64,000 bases of DNA from the NCBI GenBank assembly GCA_003707115.1, contig PPNB01000033.1:1-64000 (forward strand), read 5' to 3'. How positions within the stretch are numbered: position 1 is the first letter of the stretch; each line of letters starts with the position of its first letter. This stretch comes from Tortispora ganteri (Eukaryota). The notes below the pieces were generated by a model. The model was not told the origin of the DNA. It did no database searches and worked only from the letters and a program-made list of their open reading frames with translations. Positions 14,210-64,000 of this stretch are shown here, piece after piece. Both the position numbers and the translations under genes were made by a program.

Positions 14210-15949
14210 ATGACCCTTAAACCTGAGAATGCTCTTGAAGTACTCAAAGAGTACGAGCACCAAGATGGATTAGATGTTCATACGCTTATGGACTCGAAGA
14301 CCAGAGGTGGACTCACCTATAATGATTTTCTGATCCTACCGGGCAAAATTGATTTCGCCTCTAACGAGGTTTCACTGGAAACAAAGATCACCAAAAATAT
14401 TTCGATCAAGACTCCTTTTGCTTCTTCACCTATGGACACAGTCACTGAAGTTGATATGGCTGTGCATATGGCTCTGCTTGGTGGCGTGGGAATTATTCAT
14501 CATAACTGCACCGCCGAAGAACAGGCTGCTATGGTCCGCAAGGTCAAGAAGTATGAGAACGGTTTCATCACTGACCCTGTTGTCGTTTCTCCTGAATTAA
14601 CTGTCAAGGAGGTTTTGGCCTTGAAAGACAAACTCGGCTTTGCTGGGTTCCCTGTTACAGGTAAGTACCTTTTTTATTGCGAAAAAAAGCAAAACGCGCA
14701 CTATGATGTTTCTACAAACTTTCGTTCTACCAAGAAGCCGTAAAAGGCCTGCTGGACACCATATATAAAGGGCTTAAAGCCTGATCTGAGAGTGCCTTAA
14801 CTTTTGTTGTGGTTTGTGTATACTAACAATTATGTAGAGAACGGAAAGTTCCCTGCCAAGCTCATTGGTATTGTAACTTCACGCGATATCCAGTTTGAGG
14901 ACCCCAACGCCCTAATCAAAGATGTTATGACTACAGATGTCATTACTGCTTTTGAAGGTGTCACACTTAAAGAAGCCAACGAGGTTCTACGTCGTTCGAA
15001 GAAGGGCAAACTACCTATCGTGGACAAACAGGGCGTCATCACTTCTCTTCTTTCCAGAACCGATCTGAAGAAGAATTACCATTATCCCTTAGCGAGCAAG
15101 GAACCGCATTCCAAACAGTTACTCTGTGGTGCAGCTATTGGTACACGTCCTGCTGATCGCGACCGTTTAAAGCTCCTTTCTGATGCGGGTCTTGACATTG
15201 TGGTTCTTGACTCTTCGCAAGGCAACTCCATCTACCAGATTGAGATGATCCAGTGGATCAAGAAAAATTTCCCAAAAATAGATGTTATTGCTGGCAATGT
15301 AGTGACCCGTGAACAGGCTGCCAGCCTTATTGCTGCTGGTGCAGACGCTTTACGTATTGGCATGGGTTCTGGATCGATTTGTATTACGCAAGAGGTCATG
15401 GCTGTTGGACGTCCCCAGGGCACTGCAGTCTACCAGGTATCGCAGTTCGCTGCCAGATTTGGCGTTCCCACTATTGCTGATGGCGGTATTAGTAACGTTG
15501 GACACATAACTAAGGCTCTTGCACTCGGTGCGAGTGCTGTAATGATGGGTGGTCTACTTGCCGGCACTACTGAAGCACCTGGTGAGTACTTGTACCGGGA
15601 GGGTCAGCGCGTCAAAGCATATCGTGGTATGGGATCTATCGATGCGATGCAACGTTCTGGAAACAACGAGAATGCTGCTACCAGTAGATACTTCTCGGAA
15701 GCGGACTCTGTACTTGTTGCACAGGGAGTTTCTGGACAAGTCGTCGACAAGGGCAGTATTACCAAGTTTGTACCTTACTTGGCATCAGGCTTACAGCATG
15801 GTCTTCAGGATATTGGCGTGAAGAGCGTCAGTGAGCTCAGAGAAGGCAGCAGTAGTGGCAAAATTCGATTTGAAATGCGCTCGGCGTCCGCTCAGCTGGA
15901 AGGAGGAGTACACGGACTGTTTAGCTACGAGAAACGTCTGTACAACTAA
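14210..15949 (+). CDS. IMD4: IMP dehydrogenase. Exon 1 14210-14660, intron 14661-14837, exon 2 14838-15949
   Basis: [46 protein letters not shown]...TACTAAC...TAG intron joins FPVT-E-NGK in frame. Symbol chosen because the intron hosts an snR54-like RNA, as in S. cerevisiae IMD4. Confidence 0.96.
14698..14795 (+). ncRNA. SNR54: Intronic box C/D snoRNA, snR54-like (18S rRNA Am974 guide)
   Basis: Terminal stem GCACT/AGTGC; C-like ATGATGT 14703-14709; D box CTGA 14786-14789; guide AACTTTCGTTCT 14717-14728 complementary to conserved 18S AGAACGAAAGUU. Confidence 0.85.
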
Positions 15950-53740: not shown

Positions 53741-54436
53741 TCATTGTATTTCCGATACGTGATCAGGTTCGTGGAAAGTAGGGGAGCAATGTGCTAATGT
53801 GACTCTTTTGTGATTTCTACCTCTAAGAGAGAGGTTCTGAAGCCAGGCAAAAAATTGAGGAGCAACAAAGAGGTACGCTGATATGGCGACGAGAGCAACT
53901 AGCGCGATTATAGATGTGAGTGATCTGGGCACCAGGCCAAAGAGTAGTGGGTCGAAAGCAATGTCAAACGTTAGTAGCTGAGGCACAGTAGATAAAGAGA
54001 GATTGAACGGTACGTATGTGGGTGTAAAAGTCAAGGTTAGCATGTAATTGTCAGATTGAACTTTTAAGTCGCAGGGCGGAGACGCTGGTAGACTGACACG
54101 CAGGGAATAGCGGTTCGCGGGGATGCGATCTGTAGCGTAGCGACGCACTACTGGCCTAGGTAGATACACATCAGTCATGTTAGGGTCTAACAGTGCGTTA
54201 TCAGGATAGGAGATGTTATCATAATATGCATGCTTATCATAAATCAGCGAAACCATGTCTGTGAATGTTAAAGGGTATACTGCAGCCAAAGACGGGCTAA
54301 CTTTGATCGGGAAAATGGGGGAATCATTGGGCGGCAGCAGGGCTGGAGGGTCGCTAGAAGTACCAACAAACTCCACTGTAATAATCTCAGTGTTCGCTAA
54401 AACATAAGTGATAAATATAGGTACCAGAAGTAGCAT
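53741..54436 (-). CDS. PGA1: Pga1-like subunit of GPI mannosyltransferase II
   Basis: Signal peptide then ANTE; YSLRVSLPASPP (cf. Y.I.VCW.A..P); DP.LFGLVPRSL followed by one TM helix. ATG at 54436. Confidence 0.6.
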   Translation of the reverse strand: MLLLVPIFITYVLANTEIITVEFVGTSSDPPALLPPNDSPIFPIKVSPSLAAVYPLTFTDMVSLIYDKHAYYDNISYPDNALLDPNMTDVYLPRPVVRRYATDRIPANRYSLRVSLPASPPCDLKVQSDNYMLTLTFTPTYVPFNLSLSTVPQLLTFDIAFDPLLFGLVPRSLTSIIALVALVAISAYLFVAPQFFAWLQNLSLRGRNHKRVTLAHCSPTFHEPDHVSEIQ

Positions 54437-61982: not shown

Positions 61983-62645
61983 ATGAGTGATAACTTTTCA
62001 AAACTATCAGACAGAGATATATCCGTTATTGATCAGGTGTTTGATCCTGAAGGAGGTGGAGGGATTAAGAGTGTGGTGGTCCCCGATATTGACGTATCGT
62101 TCGTCAACGAAGGCGTTAATATTGCAGAAGCTCGGGAAGCAGAAGAAGCTGCAGTAAGAGCAGCAGAATCGGGTGATATTGATCGAGCATTGACTAATAT
62201 CAACGAGCTACTTGAGAAGTATCCTAATTACGCCAGTGCATATAACAACAGAGCGCAGATCAGAAGAATGAAAGGTGAAGTCGACAAAGCTCTTATCGAC
62301 CTATATGAATGCCTAAAACATGCTAGACCCGAAGTTTTAAAAGAAGCTCCCGAAACACAATACATACCAAGCGGATCTGTGCCTGCACGAATTCCCTCAA
62401 ATCAAGTTCTGATACTGTCGCAAGCGCATGCACAGCTTGGTAGCATATATATGAGCAAAGCCTCTGACTTAAGCGAAGACGAAGGATGGAGTCTGAAAGC
62501 CCAGGCTAGCAAGCACTTTGCAGCAAGTGGAGTGTATGGCAATGAAATTAGTCGAAAACTGGCTACAGCCATAAATCCATATGCCCGACTCTGTGGCAGT
62601 ATCGTAAAACAGGCGCTAGAGCAAGAGATATGCGGCGGCCAATAA
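61983..62645 (+). CDS. TTC36: TPR protein of the TTC36 family
   Basis: D..VIDQVFDPE, AESGD...AL, YASAYNNRAQIRR, F...G.YG, NPYARLC match TTC36 blocks as recalled. ATG at 61983. Confidence 0.85.
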   Translation: MSDNFSKLSDRDISVIDQVFDPEGGGGIKSVVVPDIDVSFVNEGVNIAEAREAEEAAVRAAESGDIDRALTNINELLEKYPNYASAYNNRAQIRRMKGEVDKALIDLYECLKHARPEVLKEAPETQYIPSGSVPARIPSNQVLILSQAHAQLGSIYMSKASDLSEDEGWSLKAQASKHFAASGVYGNEISRKLATAINPYARLCGSIVKQALEQEICGGQ

Positions 62646-62704
62646 GCTTATCGCGCCCAGCGACAACCTATCCATTGATCTATTAATCAAAAAGTAGTAT
62701 ATTT

Positions 62705-62953
62705 CGGAAAGATCGGAATACAGCGGATGTAGTATAATCTATAGCTTAGAGCAAAAATTGAACCATTCACAGTCTTGAAATATCACTGATCACGTATTAG
62801 GTCTTCTAGGAAGCCCCCGCATATTATGAGGATCGGCAGGACGAGTATAATCAAATTAAGGTTGCTTATTAGCACGAATGCCGCCAAGAGCCGTACATAC
62901 GGAAACGGGGAGAAAGATTCGGCTTCGCAATCATGCGGTTAGCAATTATATAA
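62705..62953 (+). promoter_or_regulatory. HPD promoter: CGG triplets and TATA box
   Basis: CGG at 62705, 62714 and 62724 plus further CGGs; TATATAA at 62947-62953. Confidence 0.5.
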
Positions 62954-63023
62954 GGGTTGTTTATTTTCTCTTCTTCATCACTGCAACTTCTTGATTACAA
63001 AAGCATCTTTATAAATTTCAACA

Positions 63024-64000
63024 ATGACTGTGGTGGCAGAAGCAAACGATGAACTAGACAAATACCAAGGATACGATCACGTTACTTGGTATGTAGGCAA
63101 CGCCAAACAGGCAGCTATGTACTACGTATCGTGCTTCGGTTTCAACTTGCTAGCATATAAGGGATTAGAGACAGGATCCAGAAATATTGCATGCCATGTT
63201 GTATCCAATGGAGTGGTGAAGTTTCAATTTGTGTCGATATTGCGTGCGTTGCACTCAATCGAAGGTCCCGAAAAGGAACTCTGTCAAGAAATACATGATC
63301 ACTGCTCTAAGCACGGCGATGGAGTGAAAGATGTCGCATTTGAGGTCGATGACTGCGAAGCGGTGTTCAAAGCTGCTATCAAGCGCGGAGCTAGGCCCGT
63401 GAGAGAGCCATATTCACTCAAAGACCAGTATGGTTCTGTTGTTCTCGCAACTATTGAAACATATGGCGAAACTACTCATACTTTCGTTGAAAGAATCAAT
63501 TATAAGGGGCCATTCCTCCCTACGTATTCTGCGCCGAGAATGGGCCAGGAGTGTCAACTCAGCAGCATTCTGCCGAAGATCGAACTGATGCATATTGATC
63601 ATTGCGTGGGAAACCAAGACTGGGACGAAATGGAAAAGGCTTGCGAATACTATGAAAAGACATTGAATTTCCACAGGTTTTGGTCTGTTGACGATAAAGA
63701 TATTTGTACCGAGTACTCAGCGCTAAAGAGCATTGTGATGGCGTCCCATGACGAACGAATTAAAATGCCGATTAACGAGCCGGCAGTGGGAAAGAAGAAA
63801 AGCCAAATCGAGGAGTTCATTGAGTATTATGACGGACCTGGAGTACAGCACATTGCTATCCGGGTTAAGGATATTCTTGAAACAGTTGACCACATGCGCC
63901 GCCGCGGCGTAGAGTTTATTGCTGTGCCATCTGCATACTATGATAATATCAAGAAGAGGTTGGCAACGTCAAAAGTGAGTATCGAGCAGGATTTCAAAGA
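63024..64000 (+). CDS. HPD: 4-hydroxyphenylpyruvate dioxygenase (runs off the window end; not in the ORF track)
   Basis: Hand translation: MTVVAEAND...GYDHVTWYVGNAKQAA, AYKGLETG, HGDGVKDVAFEV, IDHCVGN, FHRFWSVDD, KMPINEPA, SQIEEF, GVQHIA. Confidence 0.97.
   Translation, partial: MTVVAEANDELDKYQGYDHVTWYVGNAKQAAMYYVSCFGFNLLAYKGLETGSRNIACHVVSNGVVKFQFVSILRALHSIEGPEKELCQEIHDHCSKHGDGVKDVAFEVDDCEAVFKAAIKRGARPVREPYSLKDQYGSVVLATIETYGETTHTFVERINYKGPFLPTYSAPRMGQECQLSSILPKIELMHIDHCVGNQDWDEMEKACEYYEKTLNFHRFWSVDDKDICTEYSALKSIVMASHDERIKMPINEPAVGKKKSQIEEFIEYYDGPGVQHIAIRVKDILETVDHMRRRGVEFIAVPSAYYDNIKKRLATSKVSIEQDFK

Follow-up and report, generated by a model that had tools for sequence, protein, structure and literature searches.

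In mammals, TTC36 stabilises 4-hydroxyphenylpyruvate dioxygenase (HPD), and loss of TTC36 leads to tyrosinaemia in mice. The mammalian protein binds HPD via the VOC2 domain, as found by co-precipitation, and prolongs the half-life of the enzyme; it blocks the STK33 phosphorylation of HPD at T382, which otherwise recruits PELI1 (PMC6753076).

A partner of this enzyme has also been described in fungi. In Aspergillus fumigatus, HmgX (AFUA_2G04210) is cytosolic and required for HppD activity, its gene is induced by tyrosine, and in most ascomycetes hppD adjoins hmgX, often on a bidirectional promoter (Keller et al. 2011, PMC3203155). Extracts of hmgX/hmgA double mutants formed no homogentisate despite the iron and ascorbate in the assay; no domain was recognised in HmgX, and tblastn searches of human, worm and Dictyostelium recovered no homologue (PMC3203155). 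The hmgX mutant of P. marneffei shows the phenotype of the hpdA mutant on tyrosine and departs from it in macrophages (PMC4374905), so that the dependence of HPD on HmgX may be conditional. Tyrosine-degradation clusters have been reported from Dothideomycetes and Eurotiomycetes, in a paper whose available passages make no mention of Saccharomycotina (PMC3914699).

Here we analyse a gene pair of this kind in the yeast Tortispora ganteri, at the end of a stretch of 64,000 nucleotides (the window). The module is real and of a conserved two-gene kind that is already known, found here in a yeast and with its orientation changed. The adjacency of hppD and hmgX is itself not new, having been in print since 2011 (PMC3203155).

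The gene pair and its counterparts in other fungi

The preliminary description of the window gave the two genes as adjacent, co-oriented and separated by a short gap, and the first of them as a TPR gene equivalent to A. fumigatus hmgX, which lies beside hppD and is needed for HppD activity. All of this was borne out, the last point by Keller et al. (PMC3203155). Both ORFs were located on the same strand, in head-to-tail order with the partner gene upstream of HPD (Table 1), and the pairing recurs in relatives. Each gene has one match in the assembly (each is single-copy), and the probability that two such genes adjoin by chance is estimated at about 4e-4, taking 35 genes per 64 kb scaled to 9.63 Mb. 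The start codon of the partner gene agrees with that of its nearest protein, from Tortispora caseinolytica, which is of equal length and 90% identical. The HPD gene is intact and scores 450 bits on the NCBIfam model 4HPPD against a cut-off of 277; His193, His276 and Glu359, which we take to be the iron ligands, are present. Two further observations concern other parts of the window: a 231-aa ORF has hydrophobic ends, and two consecutive ORFs look like halves of one gene, presumably IMP dehydrogenase.

Table 1. Features of the gene pair and of related or nearby loci (window positions unless a contig is given)
Feature	Position	Strand	Remarks
HmgX-family (TTC36-like) TPR protein gene	61983..62645	+	220 aa, intronless, one uninterrupted frame
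Spacer between partner gene and HPD, probable HPD promoter	62646..63023	.	378 bp
CCG-N7-CCG site (Aro80/HmgR type), predicted	62714..62726	-	motif scan; third CCG 6 bases further
Second CCG-N7-CCG site, predicted	62881..62893	+	motif scan
4-hydroxyphenylpyruvate dioxygenase (HPD/hppD)	63024..64000	+	391 aa; ORF ends at contig position 64199, past the window
N-terminal insertion of HPD	63219-63300		HPD residues ~66-92
244-aa ORF	contig C846, 64379-65113 (L002 2880-3614)	+	directly after HPD; no Pfam/NCBIfam family over cut-off
231-aa ORF	53741-54436	-	no Pfam match
Two consecutive ORFs	14210-15949	+	probably one intron-split gene
hmgA and fahA	G000:C557:249772-252803 (L006 6772-9803)	-	457 aa and 435 aa, 350 bp apart
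Zinc-cluster gene	G000:C823:483810-484031 (L091)		
Zinc-cluster gene	G000:C557:109848-110324 (L092)		~140 kb from hmgA

The TPR label of the partner protein is supported by a match to Pfam TPR_17 above the cut-off and by a predicted structure in the form of a helical TPR array (pLDDT 79.5). The best fold match of this model is Sti1 TPR2AB (Z 13.9, rmsd 3.6, 131 residues aligned), at a level of Z (about 13) that is ordinary for helical repeats. Taken together, the domain match, the model and the fold match give the small three-repeat architecture of TTC36. Foldseek returned nothing for the model at E 0.001. The conserved blocks of the protein comprise residues 8-23, 81-95 and 179-215, and Cys204 is invariant in the 121 fungal sequences aligned (121/121).

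As judged from its sequence, the partner gene is a member of the HmgX family and the yeast orthologue of fungal HmgX. The key comparison is with P0108 of Exophiala dermatitidis, which carries the NCBI name 'L-tyrosine degradation gene cluster protein hmgX' and matches the yeast protein over its full length (32% identity over 230 columns, pairwise E 7e-31); a Sphaerulina 'L-tyrosine degradation cluster protein' is 30% identical. A profile search in which 8000 proteins were scored gave 448 at E 1e-8, and the named proteins among the matches listed (the best 120 of 448) are from ascomycetes, including Blastobotrys, Sugiyamaella and Trichomonascus. A tree of 42 proteins places the yeast protein beside these same three genera, on a long branch and with weak support (91/48), and horizontal transfer of the partner gene is not indicated. 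The yeast gene belongs to the same family as A. fumigatus hmgX via the Exophiala protein, and it shares with that gene the lack of introns, a comparable length (771 nt in A. fumigatus, PMC3203155) and the position next to hppD.

Of 123 confirmed metagenome loci, the best 80 served to assess conservation of the linkage; by nearest named protein, none of their clusters is yeast-like. HPD is present in 47 of the 80. After 26 loci with less than 1500 bp upstream had been set aside (24 of these without HPD), 54 informative loci remained, and HPD lies in the analysed flank of 45 of them; with the loci clustered at 70% identity, 27 of 28 have it, and the adjacency is thus conserved. The 54 comprise 44 head-to-head pairs, one locus with HPD 2.8 kb downstream beyond hmgA, and nine without HPD. 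These nine loci form one cluster (L018-L021, L023-L026, L028), in which an HmgX-family gene stands without HPD in flanks of up to 8 kb per side; it is either an unlinked orthologue or a paralogue. The ORF upstream of it is, we assume, P450-like. Also present in 6 of the 80 loci is hmgA, and one locus (L067, 1812-7010) has the order fahA(-), hmgX(+), hmgA(-), HPD(+), with HPD head-to-head with hmgA. The genes that flank the pair in Tortispora (UBR-box, MCM2, 244-aa ORF, kinase) were found in 0 of the 80 related loci. Pattern scans for the family gave 6 matches and 0 loci in prokaryote genomes, and 8 matches, none confirmed, in viral contigs; neither scan amounts to proof of absence.

Divergent orientation is found in 44 of the 45 linked loci and in the hppD-hmgX pair of A. 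fumigatus, whereas the pair in the window is head-to-tail. Most simply, this order would derive from the usual head-to-head arrangement by one local inversion, which would have left Aro80/HmgR-type sites beside HPD.

Promoter sites and the remainder of the tyrosine pathway

The Aro80 sites of S. cerevisiae consist of CCG repeats 7 bp apart (PMC7947893). Pairs with this spacing, CCG-N7-CCG, occur twice in the spacer before HPD against 0.06 expected (P 0.002 in 5000 dinucleotide shuffles, 0.009 given the triplet counts). The whole window holds 8 such sites for 9.5 expected, which is no enrichment, and 2 of the 8 are those in the spacer; none lies within the 213 bp that precede the partner gene or upstream of hmgA or fahA. 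Among head-to-head hmgX-hppD promoters, taken as clusters of loci L011-L089, the motif is present in 25 of 27, with 52 sites versus 10.1 expected (z 16, 40 shuffles), in a scan of 48 pattern-spacing combinations in which ten others reached z 3-6. Of 25 matched 3' flanks, 7 have the motif, with 10 sites in all. HmgR and Aro80 share 40% identity (PMC3203155), and a predicted HmgR site is mentioned in PMC4374905, in a passage that does not print its sequence. The CCG-N7-CCG pairs of hmgX-hppD promoters are a candidate HmgR binding site and match the yeast Aro80 site in spacing, although those predicted here are single pairs or triplets and not four repeats as in S. cerevisiae.

It had been suggested for this window that hmgA, fahA, maiA and hmgR might lie past its edge, and that the HPD-partner relationship is kept as a gene cluster in a budding yeast. 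The former does not hold: 3.7 kb of contig remain after HPD, occupied by the 244-aa ORF, a kinase and a helicase of the HCS1 type, without pathway genes. As to the latter, the pair of partner gene and HPD stands, but there is no larger cluster. A six-gene tyrosine-degradation cluster (TD-E type) at this locus is ruled out, and the locus differs from the A. fumigatus cluster in having two genes only. On another contig, hmgA and fahA form a co-oriented, head-to-tail pair, and the tyrosine pathway is thus split into two gene pairs in this yeast. Two zinc-cluster genes, unlinked to either HPD or each other, resemble a regulator gene that adjoins hmgX in locus L081; from this resemblance we take them to be candidates of the Aro80/HmgR type. 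For maiA (maleylacetoacetate isomerase), a search of the whole assembly, which may be incomplete, gave nothing over the NCBIfam cut-off and two weak GST-type matches, to be explained by loss, by a bypass or by an assembly gap.

Relation to animal TTC36 and proposed function

The yeast partner resembles mammalian TTC36 (HBP21) in several respects: both are three-repeat TPR proteins tied to HPD, TTC36 clusters are the nearest named ones in the Atlas, a language-model resource, and the nearest relative of the yeast protein bears the TTC36 name automatically assigned in UniRef. In the Atlas, the partner protein has as neighbours clusters of Chordata and Arthropoda that are named TTC36, at values of 0.93-0.94 and with 188-191 of 256 features shared; for the Exophiala hmgX-named cluster, the value against TTC36 clusters is only 0.85-0.86, which is no more than a lead. 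In UniRef, the name 'Tetratricopeptide repeat protein 36' is attached to the proteins of Tortispora, Arthrobotrys conoides and Trichomonascus ciferrii and to a protein that clusters with the hmgX-named one, by an automatic procedure that calls many relatives just 'uncharacterized'. The fungal profile also matches P0316, an unnamed 126-aa fragment of the short type that lacks the fungal insertions, with an hhalign probability of 98.9, and Cys204 is kept in this fragment. The yeast protein, at 220 aa, is longer than animal TTC36, of which several clusters measure 180-188 aa. Neither a named animal TTC36 nor AFUA_2G04210 is among the matches listed in the homologue searches (for one of them, the best 120 of 448) or the library search (best 150, mostly generic TPR proteins).

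By our own estimate, HmgX and TTC36 very probably form one family, and the partner gene product is probably an orthologue of animal TTC36. The preliminary description had proposed both the TTC36-family label and the identity of the two families; the Atlas neighbours, the UniRef names and the fragment P0316 speak for them indirectly. A statement that HmgX is TTC36 was not found in a literature search that left most subscription papers outside. The available text of PMC3203155 and PMC4374905 has no mention of TPR or tetratrico-, and that of PMC6753076 none of fungi. The identity is probable, hinted at by database names, and was not found in print.

The mammalian mechanism itself was compared with the enzymes of fungi. 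The last residue of the yeast HPD aligns with human residue 381, and the enzyme has no T382 tail, so that the phospho-degron of the TTC36-STK33-PELI1 axis is absent. With the loci clustered at 90% identity, 37 clusters carry HPD, and the C-terminus could be read in 30 of these: it lies at the human-381 position in 28 and is extended by one Val in two, and Thr at 382 occurs in none. Since these HPDs lack T382, the literal STK33-PELI1 mechanism cannot operate in these fungi. What had been said of TTC36 protecting HPD from degradation is correct for mammals as to binding and stabilising (PMC6753076), but the mechanism via T382 is not transferable. A Pellino search (PF04710) gave no candidate in the assembly, and none in the control genomes either. 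At the other end of the enzyme, the yeast HPD has an N-terminal insertion of about 10 residues relative to human HPD, shorter than in filamentous relatives (26 versus 28-33 residues between anchors); Keller et al. proposed this region as the contact for HmgX (PMC3203155).

On balance, we lean towards the partner being a client-specific, dedicated folding or stabilising factor for HPD. It would be a small cytosolic protein with three TPR repeats that binds HPD and, in a chaperone-like mode, either helps the enzyme to fold or guards it against aggregation and degradation, so that active enzyme would accumulate. An increase in protein aggregates after knock-down of TTC36 in flies (PMC10409296) is in keeping with such a role. 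It would not be a catalytic subunit, and the activity of human HPD expressed in E. coli (bioRxiv 10.64898/2026.10.22.760921) argues against an obligate subunit. HppD protein level in the hmgX mutant appears not to have been measured, since the available text of PMC3203155 mentions neither Western blots nor two-hybrid assays. There is an even chance, in our judgement, that HmgX/TTC36 is one ancient family dedicated to the maturation or stabilisation of HPD in eukaryotes, older than the animal-fungal split. The T382-STK33-PELI1 degron would then be a late, mammalian addition to a degron-independent function that fungi and yeasts would retain in pure form.

The main rival, which we regard as unlikely, makes the partner an activator or a metal or redox factor that loads or protects the iron centre of HPD, possibly via the invariant cysteine, with HPD abundance not its main target. 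Its attractions are that Cys204 is conserved in all the aligned fungal sequences and in P0316, that Keller et al. term HmgX an accessory factor for HppD activity, and that the N-terminal insertion of the yeast HPD is their proposed contact region (PMC3203155); yet iron and ascorbate failed to restore activity to the double-mutant extracts (PMC3203155), human HPD is active in E. coli, and the mammalian data point to protein stability (PMC6753076). A general Hsp70-type co-chaperone serving many clients, HPD being just one of them and the yeast adjacency a relic, is likewise improbable: the best fold matches of the model are indeed co-chaperone TPR domains (Sti1/Hop, Z 13-14), but such values are common to helical repeats. 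Residues 147 and 151 of the third repeat, presumably the positions of the basic clamp residues, are mostly Gln, which would also speak against this role. Other partners of mammalian TTC36 and a link or binding to Hsp70 have been reported in the literature, knock-down of TTC36 in flies affects polyglutamine aggregates (PMC10409296), and a local inversion leaves neighbours together without selection; against a general role stand the linkage to HPD in nearly all clusters and the induction of A. fumigatus hmgX by tyrosine (PMC3203155).

Two further alternatives concern the relation to the mammalian protein. HmgX and TTC36 would very improbably be different, similar-looking TPR families whose links to HPD arose separately. 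In its favour, the comparison with animal TTC36 is an indirect one, the database names are automatic, and Keller et al. found no animal homologue (PMC3203155), a report that is matched by the failure of the fungal profile to find any PDB chain and by the absence of a Pfam match in the Exophiala protein. Nevertheless, TTC36 clusters rank above other TPR families in the Atlas for both queries (the partner and the Exophiala protein); at E 0.001 no PDB chain is recovered with the fungal profile, nor does the PDB have an entry for the family by sequence, so that the profile is not a generic TPR one; the profile of the C-terminal block scores P0316 at 29.5 bits while matching 0 of 140 generic TPR decoys; and independent experiments tie both proteins to the same enzyme (PMC3203155, PMC6753076). 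The least probable reading of all transfers the mammalian mode of action to the yeast unchanged, with the partner protecting HPD against T382 phosphorylation and PELI1-driven ubiquitylation. No other mechanism has been demonstrated for the family (PMC6753076), but in its literal form this one is contradicted by the C-termini of the yeast and other fungal HPDs. A dedicated folding or stabilising factor remains the reading that we prefer.

Significance for HmgX and TTC36

The literatures on fungal HmgX and on mammalian TTC36 probably deal with one protein and do not cite each other. In print, HmgX is essential for HppD activity by an unexplained mechanism, and it was reported to have no human homologue (PMC3203155); joining it with TTC36 provides a testable mechanism. 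The surprise is limited, because such a pair is nothing unusual in ascomycetes and the identity is already hinted at by names that databases assign automatically. The mechanism published for mammals can only be part of the story, since the residue phosphorylated there is missing from fungal HPDs, and the absence of T382 makes a degron-independent ancestral function directly testable. If there is one ancient family, human TTC36 and yeast HmgX would be expected to complement each other, the role of HmgX would be explained, and TTC36 variants in tyrosinaemia could be studied in a yeast as a simple model. In practical terms, the finding bears on the expression of HPD in hosts without the partner and on pyomelanin engineering in yeasts.
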